A stretch of DNA of 64,000 nt from Tagaea sp. CACIAM 22H2 (GTDB lineage Bacteria > Pseudomonadota > Alphaproteobacteria > CACIAM-22H2): contig PVXE01000004.1 in the NCBI GenBank assembly GCA_014444615.1, positions 2,768 to 66,767 on the forward strand. The letters are read 5' to 3'. The notes beneath the pieces are model-generated. The model made no database searches. It was not told where the DNA came from and worked only from the letters and a program-made list of their open reading frames with translations. A program made the translations under genes and the position numbers. This document shows, piece after piece, positions 1 to 23,703 of the stretch. Each line of letters opens with the position of its first letter. Position 1 is the stretch's first letter.

Positions 1-2357
1 TCTGCGGCGGTATCTATGGCAAGACCAAGATCACCAAGCGCGGCAGTCCACTTATTCTGCCACTCCGCCAACGCGTTCGTCGCCGCCTCAAAGTTTCGCT
101 GTCGATGCGCAACGAGCTTGCCAGCTTCCACAATATCCTTTTCAAGCTGGGACTTCCTGTCGGCTTCGGCCTCATGAAGCCGCAGCTCTTCCGCCACTCG
201 CTCGACAACGATAGGCAGGCCGTCCAATTCCAGTGCACTCACATCGGCACCCAATGCAGCCAGCTCATTAATCAACTGCTGCCTTGCCAACTGCTCTTCA
301 CCACGAGCAGCCTCCAACACACTGTCGGCTTCATCCCGCGCTTCAATGGCCTCGAGCACCCCGTCGCGGCCTTCTAGCCATTCCAGCATTGTCTCAGGCG
401 CTTCCGGCTCAAACGGTGCCCCAGTCCATAGCGCAGTCCAATCGGCTTTCAGTTGCTTGCCTTCCTCCACCAGTCTCTTCTCGTTGTCCTGCACCTGACC
501 AAGAAGCGTTTCTCGCTCATCGACCTTTCGCTTGATCTCGGCGATGCGGCCGGCAGCTTCGGCATGGTCGAAGCGTCGGTCGGCCAGTTCGTCGGCCCTG
601 ACGACGGCAGGCTCGAAGGCACCTGCTAGATCCTCGATCTCGTGCTTGTACTGTACGGCTTGATCCGGCGGGATCGGCTGCCCCTTGATGTGCTTGAGCT
701 TTACCAGCTGCCACACAACGTCGCGGCGATCACGCGTGTCCTTCAGTTCTTCGGCGCTAACCACCAGCTCATCGCGCATCGCTCGCTCAAGGGCGGCAGC
801 GGCACCGTCCAGCTCCTGCTGAACGGAAGCAACCTGCTGCTGCGTTTCAGTCAGCCTCCGCCGCCAGTCATCCTGCCTTTCACGCTGCGCCTGCACCTTG
901 ACCCGCGCAGGTATATTCATGCCGGTCAGCGCCCCTTCATCGCCAACACTGGGTTCAAGTGAACTAAGCCGCCGGGCGACCCGGCTCCTCGCGCTCTTTA
1001 ACGCCTCTGCCGCAGCGCGCACCCGACCGGCGATGTCACCCTGTTCGCGCACACTCTTCAGTACGACGGTCATCCGTGACGCGTCACCCGGATCACCGGC
1101 CTTGGCAAGCTCATCCTTCAGTCCGGCGTGATCTTCCTTCGCTTCCTCCAATTGCCGTTCCTTGCCGGAAACATCGCCCTCCAACTCACCTTTCTGAATG
1201 AGCAGAGATCGCACGACACTAACCTTTGGCCGCGACGGAATGCGCCCGATTAGCGCGTTTGTGTCGCCATCCCGCCAGTCGAGTTCTGCGGCATCATCTT
1301 TCAACTTGCTTTGCGCAGCTTGAAGCTCAGCCTCACGTTTTGGCAGATCAGCCTTTTCAGCGCGAATCTCGATACGCCGTTCGCAGACTTGGCGAACATC
1401 CGCCGCGCGCTCGATAATCGTCGCGTCATAAGTCAGATTTTCCCGCACTTCTTCGGCGCGCCGAAGCTGTTCCCTCAATGTGCCGATACGCGTGGCCACC
1501 TCAGCATCCTTGCGCTCGGACTCGGCGACAAGCCCGGCCGCGTTCTCGGGCAGAGCGATCACGGCACCGAGCTCACCCAAAAGCATGTCTAGCTCTTGCT
1601 TTCGGCACACATCCCGAAACACCCGCCGAATCCGGCTCAGCCGGTTCCGATTAACTGTCGCTTCGCCGATAGCCTTGTCGATATTGCGATAGGCCTCTTC
1701 AGCATCTTCGTTCGTTTTCTTCAACTCGCTCCACTTTGCGGCGCTGAGCGTCTGCTCACGCAGTTCCCGCTGTGCGACCTCAAGCTTATCTTCGGCAACC
1801 GAGAACCTCCGGTGCTTCGCCCGCCGCCCCGGACTCCACAAGCCATCCGCCTCGGTGGACAGTTGGGTCAACCGCTCCCGCAACCCCCCGATACCGGCAC
1901 CCGCTGAGAACAGCACCTGGCCAACGTCGTCCTTGGCATCCAGGATTTCCCGGCCACCGGCCTCTAGGCGCGTATGGTCAAGGCTGAACATGCGCTCGAA
2001 GAACGCCCGGTCCGCGCCGGCAAGGTAGGGGCGAAGTATCGCCTCCCCTCCGGGAACCGACAAACCTTCCGGTCCCAGCAGCGTGTCCTTGTTACCTTTT
2101 CTCCGCAGCACCTCCAGCACATCGCCGTTGTTCTCCAGAACGGCGCCGATCCTCATGCTGCCGTAATCGTGCAAAAAGCCGTATGGCGTTTGCCCGTAGA
2201 TGCCAAACAAAAGATCCGCGATGGCTGACAGCGCCGTAGACTTACCGGCCTCATTCCGGCCGAAGATGATGTGGAAGTCCGACGTGTCGGCAGGCAACTC
2301 GAGCGCCCGCTCGGTGAAGTGGCCATAGCGCAGCAGATCGAGGCGTCGTATCCGCAT
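1..2357 (-). CDS. SbcC/YhaN-like P-loop ATPase (DNA-repair exonuclease ATPase subunit), 5-prime part only; gene runs off the left window edge
   Basis: Reverse-strand reading from ATG at 2357 stays open to position 1 (not in the ORF track because no in-window stop). N-terminus MRIRRLDLLRYGHFTERALELP...FHIIFGRNEAGKSTALSAIADLLFG carries a Walker A (GRNEAGKST) followed by a long coiled-coil-like, E/R/A/L-rich region typical of SbcC/Rad50/YhaN ATPases. Start overlaps the upstream nuclease stop by 4 bp (ATGA). Confidence 0.6.
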   Translation of the reverse strand, partial: MRIRRLDLLRYGHFTERALELPADTSDFHIIFGRNEAGKSTALSAIADLLFGIYGQTPYGFLHDYGSMRIGAVLENNGDVLEVLRRKGNKDTLLGPEGLSVPGGEAILRPYLAGADRAFFERMFSLDHTRLEAGGREILDAKDDVGQVLFSAGAGIGGLRERLTQLSTEADGLWSPGRRAKHRRFSVAEDKLEVAQRELREQTLSAAKWSELKKTNEDAEEAYRNIDKAIGEATVNRNRLSRIRRVFRDVCRKQELDMLLGELGAVIALPENAAGLVAESERKDAEVATRIGTLREQLRRAEEVRENLTYDATIIERAADVRQVCERRIEIRAEKADLPKREAELQAAQSKLKDDAAELDWRDGDTNALIGRIPSRPKVSVVRSLLIQKGELEGDVSGKERQLEEAKEDHAGLKDELAKAGDPGDASRMTVVLKSVREQGDIAGRVRAAAEALKSARSRVARRLSSLEPSVGDEGALTGMNIPARVKVQAQRERQDDWRRRLTETQQQVASVQQELDGAAAALERAMRDELVVSAEELKDTRDRRDVVWQLVKLKHIKGQPIPPDQAVQYKHEIEDLAGAFEPAVVRADELADRRFDHAEAAGRIAEIKRKVDERETLLGQVQDNEKRLVEEGKQLKADWTALWTGAPFEPEAPETMLEWLEGRDGVLEAIEARDEADSVLEAARGEEQLARQQLINELAALGADVSALELDGLPIVVERVAEELRLHEAEADRKSQLEKDIVEAGKLVAHRQRNFEAATNALAEWQNKWTAALGDLGLAIDTAA

Positions 2358-2359
2358 GC

Positions 2360-3631
2360 TCAATCCTCCTGTGCTGTAAGCCGTGCGGACAGATATGGCG
2401 AGACTTCACCGATCAGCGCGGCGTAATCGCCATCAACGGTAACCTTCAACACGCTATCGCCGATGTCGCCGCGAACCTCGTGGGGCAGCTGGCGCACGAG
2501 CTTGCCGATATCGTCCTTGATTCGCGCCAGTAGGTCTACGTCCCCCGTAGCATCCTGCAACAGGCGCTGTAGCTCACCGATCGCGTCTTCACGCTCGGCC
2601 AGCGTTTTTGCATCGACCTTAGGCTGGGTACGAGCGATCACCTTTTCCACCCATGCGACATCATCACCCAAGCGAAGGGCACCGGCACGGGCTTCGGCCA
2701 GCAGCCGGTCCTCGGAAGCAACAAGCTGACCATGAACAGCGGTCCGACCTTCCAAGACAATACGGCAGGCCAGAAGCCGCCCATCGGCTTCATCGGCAGC
2801 GACTTCCACGGCGGTGCGAATTCGATCGATCACCTCACCTAGGTTCTCGGCACTGTCCACTGGAACCGTCAGAACTGCCCACCGCACCACGTCACAGGGA
2901 ATCGTAGTCAGTTCGACGACGTCACGATTCTCGACGCTAACGAGGCATGCACCTTTGACACCGGTTTCGCGGGCATGGCGGCCCTGAAGATTGCCCGGAA
3001 AGACGACGTGGGGATCTTTGCGCAACACGCTCGCCTGATGGACGTGGCCCAAAGCCCAATAATCGTAGCCCTTGTTGATCAAGTCTTCGATGGCGCATGG
3101 AGCGTAGTTCTGGTGGCCCCCCATGCCGCCGAGACCCGTATGCAGCACACCGATGTTGAAGGCACCGGAAATGGGCGCTGGGTATTCGGGCACAAGATTG
3201 TCCGTAACGTCCCGCTGCCGGAAACTCTGCCCATGCAGCACGACCTGCAACTCGCGCAGTTCAAATGTCTGCGGCTTGCGTGTACCGAATACATGCACGT
3301 TATCGGGCAGTTCGAGCCGACGAGTTATCTGGCTTTCGGCATCATGGTTGCCGTGGAGTAGATAGACCGGGATACCCTCTTTGTTGAGTCGGCCCATCTG
3401 TGCAGCGAAGAACAACCCAGTCTTGTAGTCCCGCCAATCGCCGTCATATAGGTCCCCGGCGATAATGAGAAAATCGACCTTTTCCTCAATGGCCTGTCCG
3501 ACCAGCGTAACAAGCGCCTCGCGAGTCGCGGTCCGTACCCGCGCGGCAGCGTTACCTTCCTGGCTTGCAAGGCCCCGCAACGGGCTGTCGAGATGAATGT
3601 CGGCAGCATGGAGAAACCGAAAAGATGTCAT
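2360..3631 (-). CDS. SbcD/Mre11-family metallophosphoesterase nuclease (YhaO-like)
   Basis: 423-aa ORF with calcineurin-like phosphoesterase motifs in canonical order: FLHAADIHLD (motif I), IIAGDLYD (II), LLHGNHD (III), LGHVH (V). Paired with, and translationally coupled to, the downstream ATPase. Confidence 0.8.
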   Translation of the reverse strand: MTSFRFLHAADIHLDSPLRGLASQEGNAAARVRTATREALVTLVGQAIEEKVDFLIIAGDLYDGDWRDYKTGLFFAAQMGRLNKEGIPVYLLHGNHDAESQITRRLELPDNVHVFGTRKPQTFELRELQVVLHGQSFRQRDVTDNLVPEYPAPISGAFNIGVLHTGLGGMGGHQNYAPCAIEDLINKGYDYWALGHVHQASVLRKDPHVVFPGNLQGRHARETGVKGACLVSVENRDVVELTTIPCDVVRWAVLTVPVDSAENLGEVIDRIRTAVEVAADEADGRLLACRIVLEGRTAVHGQLVASEDRLLAEARAGALRLGDDVAWVEKVIARTQPKVDAKTLAEREDAIGELQRLLQDATGDVDLLARIKDDIGKLVRQLPHEVRGDIGDSVLKVTVDGDYAALIGEVSPYLSARLTAQED

Positions 3632-3639
3632 CGGGATAC

Positions 3640-4095
3640 ATCACCCTTTTGGCCGCTCATTGCCATCCCACAGACGATCCAATCTGCACGTTCAGGATCT
3701 AATTTCTTGGCCTATGAGATTCTGATTCTTGTATTTACAAAGCCATCCACGCGACAAAGCCTAAATCGATTGTCCGGCGAAAATTTTTTGAAATCAAGTT
3801 CTTGCTATCTTATACGACTCACTGTCCCGCCACTGACTTCCCAATTCGAGCATCTTCGCTGGTTTGGTAACTGGATCCCTCAAATAGCGTCCAACACCTG
3901 CATTACTGAGGCTGATGACCGTGGCGGTACAATCGACCAGCGGTTCTCGCTCACTTACATCAGCTGCAGCACGCCAAATTCCGTGTACTGATCGAGCGGG
4001 CTCGGTAGTTCTTAGTGGTATACACAAACACGACCAATAATAGTTAAGATCGCAAGGCTGTGAACTACGGCAGGGCGAGTTTCGTGATTTGAATC
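3640..4095. promoter_or_regulatory. AT-rich divergent intergenic/promoter region between the nuclease-ATPase operon and the Hhe-like gene
   Basis: About 450 bp visibly AT-rich compared with flanking coding DNA; no convincing ORF; lies between two divergently transcribed start codons (3631 minus, 4096 plus). Confidence 0.4.
3809..3827 (+). promoter_or_regulatory. T7-class (single-subunit RNAP) promoter-like motif, speculative
   Basis: cTTATACGACTCACTgtcc versus T7 consensus TAATACGACTCACTATAGGG: 13 of 14 contiguous identities in the recognition/specificity region but the +1 to +3 GGG is absent. About 270 bp upstream of the Hhe-like start, same strand. Confidence 0.15.
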
Positions 4096-7000
4096 TTGTC
4101 CAATTGCCTTGCCATTAACGATTCCCATAAACGCCTAGCGCAGTGCCCTCAAATGGATACGCCCCCATCTGCCACGCTCGATCGAATCCCCTCGTTGCTG
4201 GAGGAGGTTCGGCGGCGTCTTGTCGAGACCGGAACGCGAAACCGCCTCATTCATGTCAATCGCAAGGCCCTTAGGACCAATGCGTTAAACGTCGTGAATG
4301 AGCGATCAGATGACGTGTTTTCGATTCTACGAACCGAGGCACGCAGGATGCGATTCCGGGCTCTCGGCAAAGATCGGACGGAAGATGCGGATGGCCCGAT
4401 CCTAGCCGAGGAAACCGTCAACATCCAAATCGAAGCAAGACACCAGGACACGCTTCTCGATACACTTCTCGGTCCCGACGCCCTCCAGAAGCGCCTTCTC
4501 CGACTGGCAGACGAGGCGAAAGTCGCGGAGAATGAGCAAGGCGTAAATATCCTCTATCTCGCGCTCGGCTTCCTCACTTGGTACGAGGATGAGAAATCGA
4601 CGGTCGCGCGCGAAGCGCCGCTCATCCTCCTTCCGGTCGAGTTGGTGCGAAACGAGCGAGGATCAACGTTCGATATTCGCGCTCGCGACGACGATCTGTT
4701 CACGAACCTGCCACTGCAGGAACGACTAAAAGGCGATTTCGGGATACAGCTCCCGGAAATCGAAGAGAGCGACGCGTGGACGCCAGAAAGCTATTTCGAG
4801 CTTGTCGAGGATTGCATCGGCGAGAAGAAACGCTGGAAGATCGACCATGACGGAATCCAACTCGGATTCTTCTCGTTCGCCAAGTTGCTTATGCTCCGGG
4901 ATCTCGACCCCGCTAACTGGCCGGACGGCGCGCTGACCAAACTCGATATCGTCCGCCGGCTGTTGAAAGACGGCTTCGAGCAAGATGCGCCACTTTTCGG
5001 GCCGGAGGATCGGCTCGACGACAAGCTCGATCCCTGCGACATGCTACACGTCGTCGACGCCGACGCGTCGCAGACAAAAGTAATCGAAGAGGTGCGCAAA
5101 GGGCGCAATCTCGTCGTTCAAGGTCCGCCGGGAACGGGTAAGTCGCAGACCATCACGAACATCATCGCAGCTGCGGTCCACGATGGAAAATCGGTCCTGT
5201 TCATGGCCGAGAAAATGGCGGCGCTCGGGGTGGTCCACAACCGGCTCGTCAAGTCGGGGCTCCGGGACGTCTGCCTCGAGCTCCATTCGCGTAACGCCAA
5301 CAAGAAGCTCGTCCTGCAAGAACTGGCGCGAACGCTCAACGCGGCCGGATCGGTCGCTCAGTTGAACAACGATCCGACACAACTCCGCGAGCTCCGCGCC
5401 CAGCTCAACGAATGCGCCGAATTGCTCCATCGCGATGTGCCAGGTCGCGACTACACACCGTTCGAGGTGATTTCCCGGATTGTGAGCTTCATCGGAAAAG
5501 GCACAAGGCCGCCAACTCTGATACGCGAGGGGTTGGCGAGCCTGACGTCGGACGAAGTGGGGACTCTGGCAAAGACGATCCAAATTTACGTTGATCTGCT
5601 CGCCAAGTCCGGCCCTCGGCACGCACACCCGTTTGCCGGCGCGACCGCCGACGATATGCAGCCGACCGATCAACAGCGCCTCGCACTGGAACTGGATGCC
5701 GCCGCCGCCGCCTTCTCAAAATTCGACGCGACGCTCGCTCGGATCTTAGTGTCCGGTGGTTTGCCGCTGCCTTCGACCGTCGGCGACGCAGACCGTATTG
5801 CGGACCTTCTGGGGCGCCTCTCATCCTTGCCAGCGCGGCTAATGCCCTTGTGCGACGAACTCTTCGACAAGGCGGATGACAAACGCTTGCGCGAAGGGCT
5901 CGCCGCCGGTGCAGCTTGGCGTATGGCACGCGATGCAATCGAGAACATTTTCACCGATGCCGCTTGGACGCTTCCGGCGGCCGCGCTGCGGCCCTCGATC
6001 GCGAAAGGCACGTCCTCGTTCTTCGCTCGTGTGTTCGGCGGCTATCGCAGCGCGTGTGCCCAGCTAGCGAGCGTACTGCGGCAACCGCTTCCCAGGGCGT
6101 CGGGAGAGCGACTTCGACTTGTCGATCGCCTCCTCGAAGTCGAAAAACTGCGGACCGCACTGCGGGACGACGAAGACTATATTAAGACCTCGCTCGCCGA
6201 GCACTGGCGCGGCGAGCGCAGCGAATTCAGCGATCTCCACTTAGTCTTGAATTGGCTCACCGCGAACAAGAAAAGCGGTCTTGTGCTCACACGAGAGATG
6301 CTTACTGCGGTTCTGCGGCTTGCGACAGAATCGGCAAGCCATCGCGACGCGATCATGGCGGCCGCAAAGGACGTACGCGCCGCCGTCACAACGGTTCTCG
6401 ACCGTCTTGCCTTCGAACCGCCGATCGATGGCGATAGTTTCGACATTAAGCAAGTTGCCGCGCGTTTTACCTGCATGCGGCGCGAGCTCGCGCGCTATTC
6501 GGAGTGGACGGCCTTGCGCGGAGCGGTACGCCGCCTCGAACAATCCGAGCTTGGTACGCTCGTCGCGGCGATCGACGCGGGGAAGATCGCGCCTGACGAA
6601 GCCTCTGACGAGTTCCTCTATGCGACCGCTGAGGCGCGTTGGCGCGAAATCCGCAACACGATTCCGGCGTTGGCCGCTCTGCGAGAGACCGATCGCCACG
6701 GACTCGTCGCGCGCTTTCAGACTGCCGAACGCGATCGGATCGCCAGCGTCCAAAAGTTGATTCAGGCGAAGCATCTCGAGCAACTCCCGAGGGGTGCGGC
6801 GGGTGAGATGGCCGTCATCCGAGGCGAAATCGCTAAGAAGCGCTCGCATAAGCCAATCCGTAAGCTCTTCGAAGCGGCCGGTTCGATGGTTCGTCGCATC
6901 AAACCAGTCCTACTGATGAGCCCAATCTCGATTGCTCAATTCCTTCCGCCACAAAGGATCAATTTCGACCTACTCGTGATCGATGAGGCCAGTCAGGTCC

Positions 7001-8847
7001 GCCCAGAGGACGCGCTTGGTGCGGTCGCACGCGCCGCGCAGATCGTCGTCGTCGGCGACCAAAAGCAATTGCCGCCAACAAGCTTCTTTGACCGTCTCAC
7101 GGATGATGCGCCGGATGACGGATCAAGCGAGGAAGAAGAAAATGAGGCCCCCCAAGCGGCGAAAGCGACTGAGATGGAAAGCATCCTGACGCTCTGTGAA
7201 GCGCGGGGGCTCGGATCGCGAATGCTCGAGTGGCATTATCGATCGAGGGATCCTTCACTTATCAGCATCTCGAATGTCGAGTTCTACGAAAATCGTCTTG
7301 TCCTGCCACCCTCGCCGCTCCAGCTCGACAGAAACTATGGGCTTTCTTTCAGACGCGTTCCGGGCGCCTACAGCTCGAAGAGTCGCGGCGGTGGACGACC
7401 TGGGACCAATCGGATCGAAGCCGAGGAGATCACCAAGATGATCGCCGCGCATGCGCGGGACTGGCCAGAGCTTTCGCTTGGCGTTGTGGCTTTCTCGAAG
7501 GCGCAAAGCGACATGCTGAATGAGGCGATCGAAGTCGCGCGCCGCAAGGACGCCGTGCTGGACAGCTTCATTCGAGCGAGCACGGCTGAGGAATTCTTTG
7601 TCAAAAACATCGAAAACGTCCAGGGCGATGAGCGCGATGTGATCCTGATAAGCATCGGCTACGGACCCCACGAGCCCAACGGCCGCCTCGCCTCGATGCA
7701 TTTCGGACCGGTGAACGGCGAGGGTGGCGAGCGGCGACTGAATGTCCTATTCAGCAGGGCCCGTGTGCGGTGCATTGCAGTCGCATCGTTCGATCCGTCA
7801 GAAATTGACCCAAGTCGCGCGTCCCGCAACGGTCCGCGTGTACTCAAAAGGTTTCTCGACTTCGCCATCAGCGGGCACCTCGACGAGCGTATCGCAACGG
7901 GCGATGCTGCCGAAAGCCCATTCGAGGACGATGTTGCAGACGTAATCGTATCGCTCGGCTACTGCGCCGATGCTCAGGTTGGCAGCGCCGGCTTCAGGAT
8001 CGATATCGGCGCGCGCCATCCCGATCGGCCGGGGCAATACATCCTGGCCGTCGAATGCGACGGCGCGACATGGCACGGCGCGCTATGGGCGCGCGAACGC
8101 GATCGTCTACGTCAGGATGTTCTCGAGAATCTCGGGTGGCGCTTCCACCGCATCTGGAGCACCGATTGGTTCCATCGTCGCGATCAGGAAATTGCCCGAT
8201 TGCGCGCGGCGCTCGAATCCGCCAACGCCGAAGGCAAGAAGGGCACGTATGTCCGCGGCGCCAACGACCGGACGGATGTATCGATTGAGGATCAAGTTAC
8301 CGACGGCTCGAACGCATCAGAGGAATCTCCGGTGTCTGCTCTGCCACAGATCGAGGTTCCGGCTTATCGGCGCGCCGAAATCCCTGCACCCATCGGCGGT
8401 GAGCCACACGATGCGCCGATTGAAGTGCTAGCTGAGATGGCATTACGGATCATTGAGATAGAGGGGCCTATCCATACCGATGAGATTGCGCGGCGGGTGG
8501 CGGCTGGGTTTGGAAAGAGCAAGGCAGGAGGACGTATCCAGAAAGCCGCGACCGCGGCGCTCGACAAAGTAAGACGCAAGGGTGGAATCATCGCGTTTCA
8601 GGATTTTTGGATGACGCTATCCCAGCAAGCGTCACCGCCTGTGCGCAACCGTGCTGCCGAGTCCACGCCAACGACGAGAGCGATCCATATTTGTCCGCTG
8701 GAAATTCGCGCAGCTGCAGCCCTCATCTCAAGAGAGAGTGGGAATGTTCAAACGGACGAGATGATCCGATCAGTTGCACGTCTACTTGGATTTCAGCGAG
8801 TTGGCGCCGATCTCCAGGCCCAAATAAGTGACGCACTACAATCGTGA
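4096..8847 (+). CDS. Hhe-like defence protein: DUF4011 N-domain + Upf1/Dna2-like SF1 helicase (AAA_11/AAA_12) + Vsr/DUF559-like endonuclease + DUF3320 C-domain
   Basis: 1583 aa. Walker A VVQGPPGTGKSQT; motif II LLVIDEASQV; LEWHYRSRDPSLISISNVEFYENRL; NVQGDERDVILISIGYG; NVLFSRARVRCIAV (SF1 motifs in order, with the long insertion typical of AAA_11). Then GYCADAQVGSAGFRIDIGARHP...ILAVECDGATWHGALWARERDRLRQDVLENLGWRFHRIWSTDWF (DUF559/Vsr-fold endonuclease signature) and a C-terminal IRIIEIEGPIHTDEIARRV...IAFQDFWMT region resembling DUF3320. Alternative start at 4153 (MDTPPSATLDRIPSLLEEVRRRL). Confidence 0.8.
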   Translation: MSNCLAINDSHKRLAQCPQMDTPPSATLDRIPSLLEEVRRRLVETGTRNRLIHVNRKALRTNALNVVNERSDDVFSILRTEARRMRFRALGKDRTEDADGPILAEETVNIQIEARHQDTLLDTLLGPDALQKRLLRLADEAKVAENEQGVNILYLALGFLTWYEDEKSTVAREAPLILLPVELVRNERGSTFDIRARDDDLFTNLPLQERLKGDFGIQLPEIEESDAWTPESYFELVEDCIGEKKRWKIDHDGIQLGFFSFAKLLMLRDLDPANWPDGALTKLDIVRRLLKDGFEQDAPLFGPEDRLDDKLDPCDMLHVVDADASQTKVIEEVRKGRNLVVQGPPGTGKSQTITNIIAAAVHDGKSVLFMAEKMAALGVVHNRLVKSGLRDVCLELHSRNANKKLVLQELARTLNAAGSVAQLNNDPTQLRELRAQLNECAELLHRDVPGRDYTPFEVISRIVSFIGKGTRPPTLIREGLASLTSDEVGTLAKTIQIYVDLLAKSGPRHAHPFAGATADDMQPTDQQRLALELDAAAAAFSKFDATLARILVSGGLPLPSTVGDADRIADLLGRLSSLPARLMPLCDELFDKADDKRLREGLAAGAAWRMARDAIENIFTDAAWTLPAAALRPSIAKGTSSFFARVFGGYRSACAQLASVLRQPLPRASGERLRLVDRLLEVEKLRTALRDDEDYIKTSLAEHWRGERSEFSDLHLVLNWLTANKKSGLVLTREMLTAVLRLATESASHRDAIMAAAKDVRAAVTTVLDRLAFEPPIDGDSFDIKQVAARFTCMRRELARYSEWTALRGAVRRLEQSELGTLVAAIDAGKIAPDEASDEFLYATAEARWREIRNTIPALAALRETDRHGLVARFQTAERDRIASVQKLIQAKHLEQLPRGAAGEMAVIRGEIAKKRSHKPIRKLFEAAGSMVRRIKPVLLMSPISIAQFLPPQRINFDLLVIDEASQVRPEDALGAVARAAQIVVVGDQKQLPPTSFFDRLTDDAPDDGSSEEEENEAPQAAKATEMESILTLCEARGLGSRMLEWHYRSRDPSLISISNVEFYENRLVLPPSPLQLDRNYGLSFRRVPGAYSSKSRGGGRPGTNRIEAEEITKMIAAHARDWPELSLGVVAFSKAQSDMLNEAIEVARRKDAVLDSFIRASTAEEFFVKNIENVQGDERDVILISIGYGPHEPNGRLASMHFGPVNGEGGERRLNVLFSRARVRCIAVASFDPSEIDPSRASRNGPRVLKRFLDFAISGHLDERIATGDAAESPFEDDVADVIVSLGYCADAQVGSAGFRIDIGARHPDRPGQYILAVECDGATWHGALWARERDRLRQDVLENLGWRFHRIWSTDWFHRRDQEIARLRAALESANAEGKKGTYVRGANDRTDVSIEDQVTDGSNASEESPVSALPQIEVPAYRRAEIPAPIGGEPHDAPIEVLAEMALRIIEIEGPIHTDEIARRVAAGFGKSKAGGRIQKAATAALDKVRRKGGIIAFQDFWMTLSQQASPPVRNRAAESTPTTRAIHICPLEIRAAAALISRESGNVQTDEMIRSVARLLGFQRVGADLQAQISDALQS

Positions 8848-8850
8848 TGG

Positions 8851-9300
8851 CATGCTACGAGCTTTGTAGACACGCGGGTTAGCCAATCGCATCTTGGCCT
8901 CGAACACCATCGGGCTCACGTGGCCGATCGTCGAGTGGCGTCGTCACGGATTGTAGAAACGCTCGATTTAGTCGAACACGTCGTCCCTTGCGTCGTCGCG
9001 CGTCCGATAGTCCTTGCGCCCGATGCGTTCGGTCTTGCACGACGAGAAGAAGCTCTCCATCACCGCGTTATCCCAGACATTGCCCGTCCGGCTCATTGAA
9101 CAGACGATGCCCTGATCAGCGAGCAATCGCTGGAACGCTTCGCTGCCGTACTGGTTGCCGCGATTGGAGTGATTCAGCACCAACCTCAGGCGTCCTCGTC
9201 GTCATATCGCCGTCATCGGCGCGTCGATCAGCCGACCACCCGGCACGAGAACAGGCCGAGGACCACGGCCACGTGCCTCCCATCAGTCCCCATGGGACAG
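8851..9300 (-). pseudogene. IS3-family transposase (OrfB, DDE integrase core C-terminus) remnant, frameshifted
   Basis: Minus-strand ORF 8968-9183 reads LNHSNRGNQYGSEAFQRLLADQGIVCSMSRTGNVWDNAVMESFFSSCKTERIGRKDY.TRDDARDDVFD; other frames continue with YIERFYNP and RRHSTIGHVSPMVFEAKMRLANP, the canonical IS3 OrfB C-terminus broken by at least two frameshifts/stops. No intact OrfA/OrfB upstream. Left boundary approximate. Confidence 0.65.
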
Positions 9301-9692
9301 TTTACAAGCGTGCATTCGGCTCATCGTCACTGTGAAAGAGAAGAAGATCAAACTCATGAAACAGACCTCACTGAACGATTCGGCCTAAGAGAAGGTTGAG
9401 TTTGTCATCTCCGAGTTCTCGGTGCGATTCCTCGATCGTTGAGCGAGGCGCGCCTGAAGCGGATGAATTGGACAAATTTGTCCTGCTGCTTGTTGAGCCT
9501 AAGCGGTCGAGAAATAATCATTTTTATCAGATCATCGTCGCAGCACGACAAAAACGTCCAAATTCACTTTCTATTCTTTGGTGGTTTTCAGCCTCTAATT
9601 TCGTTTTTTATCTTTTGACCATGGAGTTTGCTCGATGTTTTCATGATTAGAGGCGCCTGCATTCCGGCGCATAATTTGAACGAGGTCCCAAA

Positions 9693-9932
9693 ATGGAATC
9701 CGATAAAGATAAATCTGAAAAGGTTCCTATCCAGATATGGGTGAAATCAGAAGACAAAGCCTATCTCATGTATTTGAAGCAGAAGCTCCGCTTTAAGCGG
9801 CTAGACGAGCTGTTTAATATCTTGCTTGATGATTTGTTTGAAAGCGAAGGCCTTGAAAGGATTTGTGGTACGAGCAAGGACGATTTGAAGAAACGAAAAG
9901 ATTTTGAATTGAATGTGAAAATAAAAGTTTGA
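9693..9932 (+). CDS. small hypothetical protein, possible ribbon-helix-helix (CopG/MobC-like) DNA-binding fold, in a strongly AT-rich patch
   Basis: 79-aa ORF with a GAGG about 6 nt upstream of the ATG. KVPIQIWVKSEDKAYLMYLKQKL..LDELFNILLDDLF fits a beta-strand then two helices (RHH-like). Codon usage/GC clearly foreign to the rest of the window. Weak call. Confidence 0.35.
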   Translation: MESDKDKSEKVPIQIWVKSEDKAYLMYLKQKLRFKRLDELFNILLDDLFESEGLERICGTSKDDLKKRKDFELNVKIKV

Positions 9933-10364
9933 ATGACTGCCCATAGCCTAATCTTGAGAGTTTTTTGGTTTTTATTTTCCAACCTAATTCTGAATAATTT
10001 TCATTGGCGCGTCGCACACTTGTCGAGATTGCTGGCTAATTGACTGATCGGTAGATTGATTGCGGTGGTCAATCCCGTTTTAGCGACAGTAAGTCGTCGG
10101 CGATAAGCGCATCGATACTGCTGTCCATCGCTATTGCGTTTCTTACTCCAGTCCTTCAGCGATGCCGAACTTGGGTTTGGTATTTGCCATTGTCGCGCAC
10201 GCATCCTCCCACCGGGAAAGCTGGCACCCATCTCGACTTCGCGATTCCATCGTGCATGGCGACGCTAAAGATCCTGCGTCGTACCTCTCGATGCCACAGC
10301 GCATGCTCGCGGATTCGCCAGAAGGCACGATCGCTCTCTTTGCCGGCGCTTCTTCGGCCGCTCT

Positions 10365-10808
10365 TCACGCCATCATAGAAGATGTAGCGGCTTCGATCTC
10401 TCGTACGAGTTCCGGGCGCTTGTCGAGCAAAGCCAGCAGGAGCGCCGCCGAATGGCGCTGGCGGAAATTGGTGTGGTCGAGCGCGTCGAAGCCGCCGGGC
10501 GTGCCCATGATCAACGCGCTCAGGCCGCGAAACGTGAGCGTCTCGTATCGCGCGGCCCGGAGCTTCTTCACGATCCGCCGCGCCGCACGCCGGAGGGCGC
10601 GGGCGTCAGCCGCTTTCATCTCCGCGAGCGCCCGGTCGGCGGCCGCGCCATCTTCGCGCCACATCAGCCCGTCATCGGCGCCTTCGGGAAACCAACCCTT
10701 CACCCTCGCGGTACGCGTCATCCCACCGTAAACGACGGTTATGTCGCGCTCGGCCCGGCGCAGCTTGACACCGGTTACCGGATGAACACGCGTGTGCGGT
10801 GTCCGCAT
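10365..10808 (-). CDS. MqsA-family antitoxin-like HTH protein (degenerate N-terminal zinc-ribbon-like domain + C-terminal XRE HTH)
   Basis: Trimmed from ORF 10365-10871 to internal MRTPHTRV start. C-terminus ...HTNFRQRHSAALLLALLDKRPELVREIE parallels E. coli MqsA ...GNAQPHPSTIKLLRVLDKHPELLNEIR. N-terminal region parallels the MqsA zinc-ribbon region but lacks the Cys ligands. No MqsR-like toxin ORF adjacent. Confidence 0.5.
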   Translation of the reverse strand: MRTPHTRVHPVTGVKLRRAERDITVVYGGMTRTARVKGWFPEGADDGLMWREDGAAADRALAEMKAADARALRRAARRIVKKLRAARYETLTFRGLSALIMGTPGGFDALDHTNFRQRHSAALLLALLDKRPELVREIEAATSSMMA

Positions 10809-10821
10809 TGCGACGCGCCTC

Positions 10822-11148
10822 TCACGCCGCTGTACGCGGTGCGGCGGCAATTCGCGAGAGATCCTTGGCAATGCGCCGCTTGGCGCGCCAAAGGTCGTGG
10901 GTTCCCTGCATGCGTAGAAACATCTCGGCCGAACCGCCGGCGACGGCGCTGAAGCGCAGCGCCATTTCCGGCGAGACCGCCCCCGCGCACGACAAGACGC
11001 GATGCAACGTCTGGCGCCTGACGCCCATCCGAGCCGCCGCGTCGGCCGTCGAGAGCTTCAAATGCTCGTGGACGATTTCATTTATCAACTCGCCTGGATG
11101 CGTCGGTTCGCGGGCGATCTCGCGGGTTTGGAATTTTGTCATCAGCAT
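10822..11148 (-). CDS. HigA-family antitoxin-like XRE-type HTH protein
   Basis: Trimmed to MLMTKF start (ORF track start at 11265 is probably an over-extension). THPGELINEIVHEHLKLSTADAAARMGVRRQTLHRVLSCAGAVSPEMALRFSAVAGGSAEMFLRMQGTHDLW matches the HigA/VapI consensus (xHPGEIL...LGxSxxxLAxxLGVxRxxxxxxxxGKRxITxxxALRLxxxFGxSxEFWLNLQxxYDL). No HigB/RelE-like ORF upstream on the minus strand (checked all frames for about 300 bp). Confidence 0.65.
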   Translation of the reverse strand: MLMTKFQTREIAREPTHPGELINEIVHEHLKLSTADAAARMGVRRQTLHRVLSCAGAVSPEMALRFSAVAGGSAEMFLRMQGTHDLWRAKRRIAKDLSRIAAAPRTAA

Positions 11149-11733
11149 AGCCTCGGCCTCAAGATTACTAGAAGCAGGATTGTGAAACGAGTCCGACACT
11201 GCGGACGGCGGGGCTCGCGCCCGCACCGGTTCTACGACGCCAATATGCATAGGCGCACTTAACATCCCGCGTCGCGGGCCGTCGAAACCCCGGTATCAGC
11301 CCCCTGCGCGGGCGTGTCGAACGGATGCGCGCGGACGCGGACGGGGTCGTCGCACCGGTAAGCCTGGCCGGCACGAAGACCCGGCACGCTCTTCCCGCTG
11401 ACGCCGGACAGGCGAAGCAGCGAAGGGCGAAACCGCACCCCGCACCGGTGCGGGAGATTTCCCAAAAGCCACCCAGCGAACCCCCTTGAGACCCAGCGGG
11501 ACCGTTGGGCGGGTGCCGCGCACCCGCACGCCATTTCCGAAAAAAAACGAGGCGGCGGCGGTTCGGGTCGGGTGGGGAAAAGGGGCGGAAGACCCGAACG
11601 GCGTCGACACGCGATTTTAAGTGCCGAGAGGTTAGCCTCCCGGGTGTTGGGTTCGGGAAACCCGTTCAGGGCGCAATAACGCATCCTGCACTTTTTTGGG
11701 GTGCACGATGCTTGCGAAAGGTCGATTTCGGCG

Positions 11734-12105
11734 ATGGCCAAACATGACCACGAACCCGACTGGGAGGAACTGAAACAGGGCTGGCTTGAGGAGGGTAACC
11801 ACGACGAATTGGGCCTGACCGGATCCGGACGCGGCGCGCGCCAATCCCCGTTCTATTTGCGTCTGTCGGTGCGTCCGGCCCGGCAGCTTGGCCAACTCGC
11901 CGACAAGCGGCCAGAGCCGCTGGACGCACCTGAGGTTCGAGTCGCCTTCTGCGCCCGACTTCCAGCCGAGACGGCGGTGGCGCAGCCGCGCCCGGCGCGC
12001 GAGTTGCGGTCTGTAGGTGCTGTAGGTGCGCGTGCGTGCATTCAATCGGCTTGCGGCCGCAGCATCTTCAGGTTCACCGGTAGCGCTGGGGCTGGCGAGG
12101 CATAA
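11734..12105 (+). CDS. hypothetical protein (123 aa), very uncertain
   Basis: Internal start MAKHDHEPDWEELKQGWLEEGNHDELGLTGSG...; no recognisable motif; high-GC region where spurious ORFs are common. Contains the tandem ctgtaggtg x2. Confidence 0.2.
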   Translation: MAKHDHEPDWEELKQGWLEEGNHDELGLTGSGRGARQSPFYLRLSVRPARQLGQLADKRPEPLDAPEVRVAFCARLPAETAVAQPRPARELRSVGAVGARACIQSACGRSIFRFTGSAGAGEA

Positions 12106-12192
12106 GGCCAGGGCGCTCGCCCGGGAAGGCGCGGAAGCGGTGCCCGATCGCCATCGCCTGGAATAGCCCTGGCGCGCGGCTGGGATGGCTAG

Positions 12193-12450
12193 GTGACGAT
12201 CCCAGCCCCGCAGGCGCGAAGGCGCAACGACGGCGTCGACGAGGCGGTCTGGATCGAACTCTCGGCCCGGCGGCGAATGGCCGAGTGCGCCGAGCTCGCG
12301 CGCATCTGGACGTCCGGTGCGCGCCCGGAAGCCGCGCTGTCGGTCGAGATCGGCGTGGCCGTCGGCATGGTCGCCGCCGCGCTCGACGCGCATGCCGAAA
12401 CTGCCGGAGCTCGGGTGCGGCGGGCCGCGAAAAGCCGCGAACGCGACTGA
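12193..12450 (+). CDS. hypothetical small protein (85 aa), very uncertain
   Basis: ORF MTIPAPQARRRNDGVDEAVWIELSARRRMAECAELARIW...; ends 12 bp before the direct-repeat array; no motif recognised. Confidence 0.15.
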   Translation: MTIPAPQARRRNDGVDEAVWIELSARRRMAECAELARIWTSGARPEAALSVEIGVAVGMVAAALDAHAETAGARVRRAAKSRERD

Positions 12451-12470
12451 TGCGGTAAGAAAGAGGGTTT

Positions 12471-12545
12471 GTCACCGATGTGAATCGGGTTGTCACCTTT
12501 GAATTCGCACGCAAATTCGATAGCGCGTGATTCGCGTTGTCACAG
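12471..12545. repeat. direct repeat copy A (75 bp) with three TTGTCAC motifs
   Basis: gtcaccgatgtgaatcgggttgtcacctttgaattcgcacgcaaattcgatagcgcgtgattcgcgttgtcacag; about 93 percent identical to copy B 152 bp downstream; followed 22 bp later by an inverted GTGACAAA. Confidence 0.8.
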
Positions 12546-12622
12546 GCTGGCGCCGGGTCGACCGCCGGCTGTGACAAATGCGAGGAAAGCCGCGCTTTTC
12601 GCACGCCCGAATTTCGGGTTCT

Positions 12623-12697
12623 GTCACCGATGTGAATCGGGTTGTCGTCATTGAATTCGCACGCAAATTCGATAGCGCATGAATCGCGTTGTCACAG
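12623..12697. repeat. direct repeat copy B (75 bp)
   Basis: gtcaccgatgtgaatcgggttgtcgtcattgaattcgcacgcaaattcgatagcgcatgaatcgcgttgtcacag; followed 22 bp later by GTGACAAA (12721-12728), as for copy A (12571-12578). Confidence 0.8.
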
Positions 12698-13029
12698 TGC
12701 GTTTTGATCGGGTCGCGCGGGTGACAAAGCGCGTATTTCGCGACCTCGGCGGTTTGAGCGGTGCCGGGCTCTTCTATTTTGTTAGTTTGGCGGGCTTGCC
12801 GGGCGATTTTTCGTAGTTCGCCCACATCTCAACCCGCTCGACAGTCATGAACCCAAGCTGAGACTGTGCGGTGGCGTTTTCGACATTCTGGCAATAAGCA
12901 TCACCGATGCGCCGTCCAAATTTTCGTAGTTTCATGTTTTCATAGTTTTTTCCGCCACCTGATCAGTGGTCTCGTGCACTCGACCTTGTTGTGAAGGTGC
13001 CCAAATCGCTGAACTAAAACACATTTAAA

Positions 13030-13057
13030 AGTGAAATTCCTAAAACCAGGAATTTCA
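13030..13057. promoter_or_regulatory. perfect 11-bp inverted repeat (candidate operator or recombinase/RDF binding site) in AT-rich leader upstream of the recombinase gene
   Basis: GTGAAATTCCT aaaacc AGGAATTTCAC; sits in a visibly AT-rich stretch (about 12840-13320) about 265 bp upstream of the recombinase ATG. Confidence 0.45.
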
Positions 13058-13320
13058 CGCGCAGCACGGCGATTTTAAGTCCCTCGGCTGCATGATTAAT
13101 CCATGACTAAGCGTGGAAACGAACTGCTGACTTCGCATCCTGTGGCGCTGCCGCAGGCCGAAGTTGCGGCGCGAGTCCGAAAAACCAGCAAAGATACCGC
13201 CGATCGGATCAATCCTATTGCCCAGAATCGGAAGGCCCGTCTTACCTTACACTCGTCTAATGCTCCCTCGGCTTTTGCGGCTGTGATTTTGGGCGAATTT
13301 CTGCTGAAGCGAATAAAGAG

Positions 13321-14838
13321 ATGATTAAGGCAGTCCTTTACATTCGATCTTCGAAAGATCGCGCGGATGCATCGCCTGCCGCACAGCGACGCGCTTTGCA
13401 GGAGCTTGCTCGACAGCGTCATTTCGCGATTGTTGGAGAATTTGTTGATACGGTCGTCTCCGGAAAGGATGACGACCGACCTGGCTTTCAATCTCTTCTT
13501 CGAGCGATGCGCTCCAAGGATCGAGGTTGGACCCATATTCTTGCTGTAGACACCGCGCGCATCGCTCGCCGCCGGTCGATTGCAATCATTTTTGAAGAAC
13601 AGGAGTGCAAGCGTCAGGGCGTGAGCGTCGTGTACAAGTCGTTGCCTGAAGCGGATCCCGCGATGGAGATGCTTTTAAAAAGCATCTTGCAGGCGATGGA
13701 CGAATGGCATTCGCTGACGTCCAGGGCGAAAGGCGTCGCCGGAATGGCCGAAAATGTTCGCCAAGGTTGGCGGGCGGGCGGCAGAGCGCCGAAAGGCTAC
13801 GTGCTAAAATATGTCAGCACTGGCGCCGTTCGAGATGGCGAACAAGTCATGAAGTCGGTCTTAACACCCGCCGACGATGCGCCTGCCGTCAGTCAATTCT
13901 TGAAGCACAGGTCGAGAGGCATCCGCCGCGGGCGAGCCCTTGCGCTCGCTGGATTGTCTTGGCCACCAACCACAGCAATCGAGGTTGAGCGCAACGCTCA
14001 ACTTTATGCTGGCCACACGACCTGGAATCGTACGGAAGAGCGTTTGAAGGACGGTTACGCAGGCGGCCGTAAATGGCGGCCAGAAGAAGAGTGGGTGACT
14101 AATCGGAACACTCACCCCGCACTAATTACCGATGCTGAAGCACGAGCTATCCTCGATGGATTGAACGCGCGACGCCGCAGCGGAGGCTACCCCGCCCGCC
14201 AGATCTATCTTTTCGGCGGCATGATGACTGCCCCATCGGGGGCGAGATGGTCCGGAGATAGTGGGTACTATCGGCTCGGAAAAACGTCCCGCATCTCCGC
14301 CAAAGCAGTGGAGCAAGCCGTAATGGGGCGGGTGATCGAAGACTTCAAATCCGAACGCATGGTTGATGCGATCATCAATTCGATCCGCCAGGCTTCCGTT
14401 ACCATCGATGTCGGGCAAGACACGTCGAAGATCGAGCGCAAACGTGTCGAGACAGATCGAAAGATCGCGCGACTTACCGAACTCGTCTCAGAGACGCGAA
14501 CACCTGCCCCTTTGCTTCGCCAAATTGAGACTTTGGAAGCCGAACGCGAAGTGATCCTATCGCAGATCGCGCAAGCGAAAGCCCCTAAGGGGCCATCGCT
14601 GGACCTGTCGCATCTCAGACCCAGCGATATTCGAGCAATGCTCGACGATCTTGCGACAGAGCTGACGACATCGACAGCGCCCGAAATGCGCGATCTCGTT
14701 CAGCAGGTGATTGAGAAAGTGGAGTTATGCGCCGAAAGCTTCGAGGCGACGATCCACTATCGACCGCTTCCACTCCCAGGCGAAAGCGGGGTACGGCTGG
14801 CGTCCCCACGGGGATTCGAACCCCGGTCTGCACCGTGA
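13321..14838 (+). CDS. large serine recombinase (resolvase/invertase N-domain + recombinase domain + C-terminal coiled coil)
   Basis: 505 aa; N-terminus MIKAVLYIRSSKD (catalytic Ser in Y-x-R-S-S context), ILAVDTARIARR (resolvase D-R-x-x-R motif); long C-terminal recombinase/coiled-coil region (IERKRVETDRKIARLTELVSETR..LLRQIETLEAERE). Last 41 nt overlap the tRNA-Glu gene on the opposite strand. Confidence 0.8.
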   Translation: MIKAVLYIRSSKDRADASPAAQRRALQELARQRHFAIVGEFVDTVVSGKDDDRPGFQSLLRAMRSKDRGWTHILAVDTARIARRRSIAIIFEEQECKRQGVSVVYKSLPEADPAMEMLLKSILQAMDEWHSLTSRAKGVAGMAENVRQGWRAGGRAPKGYVLKYVSTGAVRDGEQVMKSVLTPADDAPAVSQFLKHRSRGIRRGRALALAGLSWPPTTAIEVERNAQLYAGHTTWNRTEERLKDGYAGGRKWRPEEEWVTNRNTHPALITDAEARAILDGLNARRRSGGYPARQIYLFGGMMTAPSGARWSGDSGYYRLGKTSRISAKAVEQAVMGRVIEDFKSERMVDAIINSIRQASVTIDVGQDTSKIERKRVETDRKIARLTELVSETRTPAPLLRQIETLEAEREVILSQIAQAKAPKGPSLDLSHLRPSDIRAMLDDLATELTTSTAPEMRDLVQQVIEKVELCAESFEATIHYRPLPLPGESGVRLASPRGFEPRSAP

Positions 14839-14873
14839 GAGGGTGCCGTCCTGGGCCTCTAGACGATGGGGAC
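14798..14873 (-). tRNA. tRNA-Glu (anticodon CUC)
   Basis: Reverse complement GTCCCCATCGTCTAGAGGCCCAGGACGGCACCCTCTCACGGTGCAGACCGGGGTTCGAATCCCCGTGGGGACGCCA: 7-bp acceptor stem pairs perfectly, GTCTAGAGGCCCAGGAC D-arm as in bacterial tRNA-Glu, anticodon stem GCACC/GGTGC with loop CTCTCAC (anticodon CTC), T-arm CGGGG-TTCGAAT-CCCCG, encoded CCA. Confidence 0.85.
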
Positions 14874-23214: not shown

Positions 23215-23703
23215 TTAGGACAGGTGTGCGCGCAGCATCCACGCGGTCTTGCCGTGTTCCTGCATACGGCCGACCATCAGGTCGCCCGTTTCGGTGTCGC
23301 CCAAATCTTCGACCGTTTCCTGCGTTTCGCGGGCGAGGCGCGTCAGCGCTTCGTGATCGGCCACGAGTTCGGCGATCATTTTCTGCGGCGGCAGGATTTC
23401 GGTCTGCTCGTCGATCACCGACAGCTTCTTGAATTGGGCGTAGGAGCCGGGGGCGGGTTCGCCCAAAGCGCGGATACGTTCGGCCAATTCGTCGATCGCG
23501 GCGGCGAGCTGGGCGTATTGCGCGCCGAACATCTCGTGCAGCTGGATGAATTGCGGGCCGGTCACGTTCCAGTGGAAGCCCTGCGTCTTCAGATACAGGA
23601 CATAGGTCGAGCCCAGAACCTTGCCCAACGCCGCGGCGGCGGCCTTGCGCGCATTGTCCTTCAATCCGATATCGACTTTCATTTTTCCATCTCCATCAGA
23701 CAT
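23215..23703 (-). CDS. dps: DNA starvation/stationary-phase protection protein Dps (ferritin-like)
   Basis: VLYLKTQGFHWNVTGPQFIQLHEMFGAQY...ERIRALGE ferroxidase-centre motifs; start probably MKVDIGL. Confidence 0.8.
   Translation of the reverse strand: MSDGDGKMKVDIGLKDNARKAAAAALGKVLGSTYVLYLKTQGFHWNVTGPQFIQLHEMFGAQYAQLAAAIDELAERIRALGEPAPGSYAQFKKLSVIDEQTEILPPQKMIAELVADHEALTRLARETQETVEDLGDTETGDLMVGRMQEHGKTAWMLRAHLS

Follow-up and report, generated by a model that had tools for sequence, protein, structure and literature searches.

The stretch of DNA considered here, called the window below, comprises 64,000 nucleotides of Tagaea sp. CACIAM 22H2 (assembly GCA_014444615.1, contig PVXE01000004.1, positions 2,768 to 66,767 of the forward strand). 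A sequence-only reading had described its left part as a mosaic accessory island abutting a tRNA-Glu gene, and every element listed in that reading was found again at or near its place. Based on comparison with related loci, we consider it likely, with good confidence, that window positions 1-14808 belong to an accessory island, composite and decayed and covering at least 14.8 kb, at a tRNA-Glu(CTC) integration hotspot of a Tagaea-type alphaproteobacterium, that the right end of this island was made by a large serine recombinase (LSR) stemming from an integrative mobilizable element (IME), and that the island is probably immobile. Three features form this right end:

14798..14873, minus strand: tRNA-Glu(CTC), intact (ARAGORN; Rfam 57.6 bits)
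13321..14838, plus strand: LSR (integrase), 505 aa, intact (Pfam Resolvase and Recombinase; phrog_95 integrase)
14783..14809, plus strand: attR, consisting of the element arm GAAAGCGGGGTACGGC, which is conserved in nine loci, and the 11 nt at the end of the tRNA that the element supplied (TGGCGTCCCCA)

The tRNA-Glu is the one tRNA found in the window by ARAGORN and Rfam, and the Rfam scan of 1-20 kb yields no family besides it. Directly to its right lie the housekeeping genes ltaE (threonine-aldolase-type), rluD and rpoH, as had been noted before, in the order seen in Tagaea relatives, which are the nearest genomes (LtaE identity 69-71%). The block rpoH-rluD-ltaE-tRNA-Glu is conserved in six relatives (L001-L005 and L072), four of which carry a tRNA-Glu identical at 76 of 76 positions. 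Past the tRNA, these six relatives share no gene with the window or among themselves. From their translations, L002 contains a large putative methyltransferase/restriction-like ORF together with ATPase-like ORFs, and L001 has ORFs resembling an AbiE-type pair. L081 is a metagenome contig from the closest relative. Starting at the recombinase start codon, it is 90% identical to the window at the nucleotide level across the tRNA and as far as ltaE; upstream of that codon the two are unrelated. Again from translations, L081 holds three ORFs of possible defence type beside a relaxase. The content past the tRNA thus differs in every relative beside a conserved flank, and the region is a variable accessory island; the identical gene sets without an indel at tRNA-Glu that would have spoken for a fixed region were not seen in the six relatives. 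The same locus of L003, a Tagaea metagenome-assembled genome (MAG), carries two tandem tRNA-Glu(CTC) genes (11079-11154 and 11219-11294, 140 nt apart). In the cargo of the L081 element, three consecutive minus-strand ORFs at 1412-5030 (669, 163 and 392 aa) resemble a putative three-component ATPase-type defence cassette, and the nucleotide homology between L081 and the window starts within ~25 nt of the LSR start codon (window 13321; L081 10001).

Windowed GC and the GC content at third codon positions (GC3) confirm a low-GC stretch left of the tRNA-Glu, with the atypical composition of a tRNA-associated genomic island. GC is 0.587 over 1-14808 versus 0.655 ± 0.017 (minimum 0.623) in 2-kb windows of the remaining 49 kb. 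GC3 ranges from 0.59 to 0.67 in four of five measured island genes and from 0.77 to 0.86 in the housekeeping genes ltaE, rluD and rpoH; the fifth island gene, which is MqsA-like, has a GC3 of 0.78. The depression extends leftward as far as window position 1.

The recombinase reported at the tRNA proved to be a large serine integrase, 100% identical to a protein of Tagaea sp. CACIAM 22H2. Its gene runs into the tRNA, an overlap absent from the earlier description. Its family comprises 788 database proteins at E<=1e-10, and members are encoded on 95 IMG/VR contigs; by tblastn against cultured phages (50,697 in GenBank) and 72,556 plasmids we found none at E<=1e-20, and the best GenBank phage match reaches no more than ~32% identity in a part of the protein. 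The Resolvase domain (68.3 bits, residues 4-149) carries the catalytic residues Y7, R9, S10 and S11, which are invariant in 35 homologues, and PDB sequence matches are the catalytic domains of TP901-1 and TnpX. The Pfam Recombinase domain scores 23.4 bits against a cut-off of 21.1. An AlphaFold2 (AF2) model with a pLDDT of 79 aligns over its full length (550-600 columns) to phiC31, Bxb1 and 9dxh, a further complex of a full-length serine integrase; with the DNA complex of the A118 CTD the alignment spans 376 columns, with fold-match E-values of 1e-17 to 1e-8 overall. Judged from this predicted fold, the protein would have the catalytic, recombinase and ribbon/coiled-coil architecture of phiC31, Bxb1, A118 and SPbeta; a β-ribbon is modelled at ~311-326 and long helices at 327-420, while the tRNA-encoded tail is predicted to be disordered. 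Pfam Zn_ribbon_recom does not match the LSR. The zinc-ribbon-like segment (residues ~296-326, LFGGMMTAPSGARWSGDSGYYRLGKTS) is cysteine-free in all 35 aligned members, among which C96 is the only invariant cysteine, so that the C-terminal architecture of serine integrases, a recombinase domain plus a zinc ribbon with an inserted coiled coil, is seen only in part. The cysteine-free fold still aligns full-length with zinc-ribbon-bearing integrases.

Compared with L081, the LSR has a dN/dS of 0.11 and a dS of 0.34-0.36, indistinguishable from the values of ltaE (0.10 and 0.37); it is intact and under purifying selection. A 73-aa basic ORF at 13103-13324 on the plus strand overlaps the LSR start by ATGA, an arrangement that resembles translational coupling; it has no family match, and since it is not conserved in any related locus it was rejected as a directionality factor. 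The DNA upstream of the LSR is AT-rich and holds two copies of a 21-nt direct repeat (..TTTTCGTAGTT), at 12798-12818 and 12911-12931, 113 nt apart, which may be an operator or promoter element.

The LSR reading frame stops at 14838, 41 nt inside the tRNA-Glu gene; the 3' half of the tRNA, with its acceptor and T arms, is read in antisense by the final 13 codons (LASPRGFEPRSAP). The same geometry is seen in eight further loci with complete homologues (L081-L084, L086 and L088-L090), where the LSR is 47-93% identical and the ORF ends ~40 nt inside a tRNA-Glu (CTC or TTC). The overlap loci include alpha- and betaproteobacterial contigs, and in most of them a conserved arm (A)AAGCGGGG(T/A)... adjoins the tRNA. 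Among the top 120 homologues, 42 have a tRNA-antisense tail, ~48 a longer tail after ASPR, typically ...ELIPGF...VIPHRRRA, and 10 belong to a sister group reading the same DNA in another frame. A different, unrelated LSR in L004 (4298-5977; 23% identity, normal Cys-rich ribbon) runs antisense through the whole tRNA-Glu in the frame of these 10 homologues (WRPHGDSNPG...) and adjoins a 1224-aa relaxase-like protein (6811-10485).

Long-tail LSRs are encoded on two unintegrated phage genomes, L095 (Mu-like baseplate and tail genes) and L096 (RecT, YqaJ and SSB). In both, the 3' end of the LSR gene contains TGGCGTCCCCA|CGG between inverted arms of 12-16 nt, which in L095 form a perfect 16-nt pair (AAAAGCGGGGAACTGT / ACAGTTCCCCGCTTTT) with a 22-nt spacer. 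The arm symmetry (of 19) is 17 in L095 and 13 in L096, versus 1-7 in loci with a tRNA tail; for IMG/VR loci of the long-tail class (class B) with sites in the LSR 3' end it is mostly 9-14, with a range of 6-14. The integrated counterpart is found in L089, a complete 5.4-kb element with a Rep_3 protein, an HTH_17 protein and the LSR, bounded by the 15-nt direct repeat gTGGCGTCCCCACGG. When its left junction (attL) is translated in the frame of the LSR, the result is LASPRLAELIPAFEDPRPISIPHRRRSRAAS, which belongs to the long-tail class. As expected for a serine integrase with a short dyad-symmetric attP and an attB sharing a small core, attP dyads are seen in L095, L096 and many viral contigs and matching attL and attR in L089; the window has attR only. 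The dyad sites in LSR 3' ends, together with the L089 attL encoding the long tail, indicate at the level of sequence that attP lies within the integrase gene. As free copies have the long tail, integration would rebuild the tRNA and at the same time swap the integrase C-terminus. Two further candidates for attL were dropped: a 19-nt tRNA-like match in L086 (2005-2023), first taken as attL, has no inverted arm, and in L088 the inverted match spans 10 nt, which is not strong enough to fix an attL.

The attP dyad is centred on the AC of CCCA|CGG, which corresponds to the junction of T stem and acceptor stem and to 14808/14809 of the window. We infer that the AC at 14808-14809 is the crossover dinucleotide and hence the right end of the island. 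The start of the motif (A/T)(A/T)CCCCG(G/C) lies 18 nt from the centre in the attP arms, and in the tRNA half-site this distance is 13 nt. For A118, the motif of the zinc-ribbon domain is likewise displaced 5 bp inward in attB relative to attP (PMC3783163). The family thus resembles other large serine integrases in its dyad-symmetric attP of ~50 bp and in the outer motif lying 5 bp inward in the attB half-site (PMC3783163). It differs from them in the missing ribbon cysteines, in the position of attP inside the integrase ORF and in its target, a tRNA gene that is restored and not a protein-coding gene that is disrupted.

The att sites bear directly on whether the region is instead an old, fixed part of the chromosome, with a domesticated recombinase or an unrelated resolvase/invertase whose overlap with the tRNA is a coincidence of reading frames. 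Such an origin would agree with the dS of the LSR, equal to that of ltaE, with its host-like dN/dS, and with L090 (Methylotenera genome, ~9600-11494), where an intact LSR stands alone as a 1.8-kb integrase-only remnant and is preceded, at ~370 nt from its start, by a decayed attL (TGATGTCCC-A...GATCCCCGCTTTTGAA). Yet it is highly improbable given that the relatives are wholly different past the tRNA and that the overlap recurs in nine of nine loci at 47-93% identity, with two tRNA-Glu isoacceptors and in several bacterial classes. Moreover, the gene is found in phage genomes with a dyad attP, attL and attR match in L089, and the predicted fold is that of a full-length serine integrase.

Islands linked to a tRNA gene are common but belong to tyrosine integrases. 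Targets of the tRNA/tmRNA type, t(m)RNA, were assigned to 44.5% of tyrosine integrase (Y-Int) elements and to 4.9% (14/297) of serine integrase (S-Int) elements in a 2020 survey, which states that the use of t(m)RNA by S-Int had not been described before and is in need of proof (PMC7192596); a large LSR catalogue makes no mention of tRNA (PMC10083194). The nearest precedent for a serine recombinase at a tRNA is phiRSM, a filamentous phage of Ralstonia, which recombines at the end of a tRNA gene as the window family does with a core of 14-15 nt from the 3' end of tRNA-Glu. The phiRSM core is 13 nt of a tRNA-Ser, placed at the 5' end in the text and at the 3' end in a table of the source (PMC4471427). 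In contrast to the 505-aa LSR with attP within its own gene, phiRSM uses an S-Core Int of resolvase/invertase size, and its attP lies between two genes. By comparison of their loci, the family's serine integrases appear to target and restore tRNA-Glu at its 3' end; this gene is conserved in all loci that were compared. They offer a natural test of an LSR reading the tRNA T arm as an attB half-site and, as candidate recombinases with a nearly invariant target in the proteobacterial loci examined, are of interest for genome engineering.

The position of attP also makes an integration-created isoform switch possible. The arginine codons of the long tail differ between L095 (AGA/AGG/CGC), L096 (CGG/CGT) and L089 (CGG/AGA), and the tail lies outside the ~25-bp attP half-site; from this comparison the long tail looks selected as protein. 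Tentatively, and with the odds against it, the free form with the basic tail (...ELIPGF...VIPHRRRA) and the integrated form ending in ...GFEPRSAP could be isoforms that differ in stability or direction. If true, a serine integrase would here be controlled through its own integration, in analogy to integration-dependent immunity. In the mycobacteriophages with such immunity (BPs and others; PMC3694055) attP likewise lies in a coding sequence and viral and prophage C-termini differ. There, the split gene encodes the repressor and the systems use tyrosine integrases, whereas here ~22-30 C-terminal residues of the serine integrase itself would be swapped. As a corollary, LSRs whose attR retains the tRNA-Glu half-site may be long-lived anchors that outlast exchanges of the DNA upstream, which would fit the host-like dS, the break in homology at the ATG and the LSR-only remnant of L090. 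In archaeal integrases of the SSV1 type, attP lies inside int and the gene is broken in two upon integration.

Upstream of the LSR we found remains of a mobilization gene that had been missed in the earlier description, together with its surroundings:

11731..12450, plus strand: MobA/MobL relaxase pseudogene, reduced to ~50 N-terminal aa and a degraded C-terminal third
11631..11730, plus strand: conserved stretch preceding the relaxase gene, with GCATCCTGCA, a possible oriT as a lead (83% nucleotide identity to L098 8-264)
12420..12745, no strand: repeat array with two ~152-nt units in tandem; in each unit, three TTGTCAC-type motifs are direct and one is inverted

The pseudogene came to light in an exhaustive HMMER search with the 85-aa frame 12193-12447, which led to P0241, a 755-aa MobA/MobL relaxase with the Pfam MobA_MobL domain at residues 209-296. 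Residues 1-49 of P0241 are 84% identical to window 11734-11880, and over residues 485-755 the identity to 11812-12447, which keeps the same frame, is 40% (75% for the last 85 aa). Residues ~50-485, including the catalytic MobA_MobL domain, are deleted, and internal stops are present. The N-terminus is also 56% identical to that of the L081 relaxase. P0241 and the L081 relaxase themselves share 44% identity, so the resident relaxases are distantly related. The source contig of P0241, L098, carries a primase, TrbC and VirB4 and is 83% identical at the nucleotide level to window 11631-11892 and 72% to 12177-12727. A search for an oriT-like hairpin upstream of the relaxase gave nothing better than shuffled sequence (z -0.98). 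A functional relaxase with an oriT, as an IME would have, is thus not present, the oriT being a lead only.

The repeat array had been called iteron-like. Its repeats are real: the two units share an 81-nt core with 91% identity, and the array contains six of the seven TTGTCAC sites of the window. They are not iterons beside a Rep gene, as none was found in the window with Pfam and NCBIfam, and L089, the family member with Rep_3, has no sequence in common with the array. Instead the array follows the relaxase pseudogene, and a homologous two-unit array lies downstream of the intact relaxase in L098 (within the stretch of 72% identity). The array is an inherited part of a conjugative or mobilizable backbone, downstream of the relaxase gene, and is conserved in the conjugative-element contig L098.

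The right-hand 3 kb can therefore be read, from the gene content of related loci, as the stump of an IME, because the closest flanked LSR loci, L081 and L088, pair the integrase with a full MobA/MobL relaxase. In the proposed course of events, an incoming IME with LSR and relaxase, of the kind seen in L088 and L081, would have recombined the attP in the 3' end of its LSR gene with the tRNA gene at the boundary of T stem and acceptor stem. The element would have restored the tRNA by bringing its own version of the final 11 nt, whereas the last ~22-30 integrase codons would have been left at the far end, the prophage-form ORF now closing in tRNA antisense (...ASPRGFEPRSAP). Later, the catalytic domain of the relaxase would have been lost, an IS3 cut down to a stump and an antitoxin gene stripped of its toxin, while unrelated modules further left, a PDC-S37-type helicase-nuclease and an SbcCD-like pair, would have accreted or been left behind.

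A phage could have delivered the LSR as well, and the right-hand module would then be the remnant of a temperate phage. The 95 IMG/VR contigs encoding family members and the phage genomes L095 and L096 speak for this. Its chance is nevertheless slim: the window has no phage genes, the relaxase remnant lies 870 bp upstream of the LSR, and it is a MobA/MobL relaxase that stands beside the LSR in the closest LSR loci with enough flanking DNA, L081 (LSR identity 93%) and L088 (LSR identity 59%). Known serine-recombinase IMEs (Tn4451 and streptococcal elements; PMC5704250) resemble the IME proposed here in being small elements with a serine recombinase and a relaxase, as in L088, L081 and the window remnant. 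Those reviewed were found in Firmicutes only, have very short repeats and disrupt dispensable genes (PMC5704250); by contrast, the elements described here come from proteobacteria, and their target, tRNA-Glu, is restored.

Although the integrase is intact, the loss of the relaxase catalytic domain, the IS3 stump and the orphan antitoxin make it probable that the island is no longer mobilizable. An intact and currently mobile IME or prophage, still able to excise and transfer, is unlikely. The complete LSR ORF with its conserved catalytic N-terminus and purifying selection, the intact attR and a left end that could lie outside the window would be in keeping with such an element. Apart from the decayed genes, however, library scans of 1-14.8 kb found no type IV secretion system (T4SS), replication or phage structural genes, and no attL occurs within 14.8 kb, whereas related complete elements measure ~5.4 kb (L089) to ~9 kb (L088). 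Displaced tRNA fragments, inverted attR arms and remnants coding for the tail were sought across 1-14797, and none was found. A match at 8936-8949 was rejected since it lies within IS3 coding sequence, and the remaining matches are the tRNA itself or chance. The att repeats that typically bound a genomic island are thus represented by attR at the right end only.

Left of the IME stump lie the remaining parts of the mosaic:

10822..11150, minus strand: HigA-family antitoxin-type HTH regulator (TIGR02607 79.4 bits versus a cut-off of 47.7; phrog_1381)
10365..10871, minus strand: MqsA-like HTH protein, weak match (GC3 frame signal 0.72-0.90, a real coding frame)
9230..10360, no strand: AT-rich patch (GC minimum 0.376 at 9501-10000)
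8850..9226, minus strand: IS3-family remnant, the 3' ~350 nt of the transposase gene with the element terminus (blastn; Pfam rve_3/rve fragments)
4153..8847, plus strand: PDC-S37/ProA-like candidate anti-phage gene, 1564 aa (PADLOC PDC-S37 1738.8 bits)
3632..4152, no strand: divergent intergenic spacer, AT-richer (GC ~0.51-0.54 by composition profile)
2360..3631, minus strand: SbcD/Mre11-like metallophosphoesterase, 423 aa (Pfam Metallophos; GC3 0.64)
1..2357, minus strand: AAA_27 (SbcC/YhaN-like) ATPase, truncated by the left edge of the window (Pfam AAA_27 253.6 bits)

The decayed IS and the compositionally alien AT-rich patch of the sequence-only reading are both present. By blastn, 173 plasmid records match at 71-77% identity, all within the IS3 stretch 8850-9226; the match is limited to the 3' end of the transposase gene, and in place of a complete IS3 with orfA/orfB and two ends a terminus of ~377 bp is left. 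No plasmid match was obtained for 9300-14800. The AT-rich patch holds a 79-aa ORF (9693-9932) without a match in Pfam, NCBIfam, PHROG or PADLOC, and scans of the small ORFs in 9.3-13.3 kb with the same libraries found nothing. As to the orphan antitoxin-type regulators, HigA scores above its equivalog cut-off and has no HigB partner, there being no toxin-like ORF in the three upstream frames and no Pfam match in neighbouring ORFs, so that a HigBA toxin-antitoxin system is not present. The second gene is MqsA-like only weakly; it stays below the family cut-offs (Pfam MqsA_antitoxin 21.2 bits versus 30, E 3.2e-4; TIGR03830 24.6 bits versus 61.8, E 1.7e-5) and has no MqsR partner gene.

The proposed defence cargo consists of the protein encoded at 4153-8847, with the Pfam domains DUF4011, SF1 helicase, MTES_1575 nuclease and DUF3320. 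It matches the PDC-S37 model over its full length (residues 30-1582 versus model positions 5-1531 of 1550), and its DUF4011 - SF1 helicase - Vsr-like nuclease - DUF3320 architecture is that of PDC-S37, Hhe and ProA, which makes it a candidate for defence. The NCBIfam ProA match (1283.7 bits) is below the cut-off of 1500 and covers model positions 355-1903 only, i.e. the first ~354 positions of the model are missing. The match to NCBIfam Hhe (930.2 bits) is below the cut-off of 2000 and limited to the C-terminal part, and that to PADLOC Hhe (651.5 bits) is partial, the protein aligning to the C-terminal ~530-590 residues of the Hhe models only. The origin of the NCBIfam name 'ProA' was not identified in the literature.

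The SbcCD-like pair at the left edge could be ordinary core DNA-repair machinery, in which case the island would end at the 3.6-kb spacer, one of the two left boundaries considered at first. Its annotation as DNA repair exonuclease, the missing match to any catalogued defence system in PADLOC (matches of the AAA_27 gene were weak only) and the spacer as the most AT-rich point of the left side are in line with this. We nonetheless regard such a boundary as unlikely. The SbcD-like protein is 83-86% identical to proteins of a Betaproteobacteria MAG and of Oceanicaulis, i.e. across orders and classes, far more than the 71% that is the best value for the adjacent core protein LtaE in the nearest genus, and the GC3 of the pair is 0.64-0.67 versus 0.77-0.86 in core genes. 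In L091 and L093, where AAA_27 homologues of 1174-1180 aa come after the nuclease gene, the pair sits amid Gabija-like, AbiE, WYL and IS3 genes. This cross-class identity, the defence-type neighbours and the low GC3 place the pair, which is itself spread horizontally, in the accessory region. Exact-sequence look-ups of the SbcD-like protein, the LSR, the PDC-S37-like protein and P0001 yielded no record by which the window could be lengthened on its left side. No att-like sequence was found at the spacer, which separates two foreign-looking modules with low GC and foreign-type genes on either side. As low GC and foreign-looking genes reach position 1 and the window contains no attL, 3.6 kb is not the boundary; the other option of the first description, a left end beyond the window that includes the nuclease-ATPase pair, agrees with these data, and the left end is outside the window or lost. 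The high identity across classes, the recurrence in defence islands and the lack of a PADLOC match make the Metallophos and AAA_27 pair a possible uncatalogued defence or anti-plasmid module.

Several points weigh against reading window 1-14808 as one LSR-anchored island. Recombination by members of the LSR family is deduced from sequence comparison. The synonymous divergence of the LSR equals that of ltaE and the homology to L081 begins at the LSR ATG, which suggests that the integrase has long resided here by vertical descent while the DNA ahead of it turned over, as does the lone LSR with a decayed attL in L090; a simple acquisition of one element does not predict this pattern. The segment 10.2-12.5 kb has a genome-like GC of 0.64-0.69. 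With no left end in the window, the size and unity of the island are unproven, and the left modules may have come by separate routes. Finally, PDC-S37 is a candidate defence gene and the window protein is under both NCBIfam equivalog cut-offs, while in P. aeruginosa one hotspot is flanked by a core gene that is a large DUF4011 gene (PMC10250203).

Overall, the island resembles tRNA defence islands and hotspots such as cDHS1/2 of P. aeruginosa (PMC10250203) in being a variable, low-GC mosaic of defence and mobile genes beside a conserved core flank, with content that varies between relatives. The difference lies in the anchor, here a large serine integrase, whereas tyrosine integrases dominate at tRNA sites. 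As such the island is an ordinary eroded mosaic of the defence type, and the integrase family is the more notable part. Elsewhere in the window, a GC dip to 0.58 with negative AT skew occurs at 23250-23750, inside housekeeping DNA of 0.65-0.69 GC.

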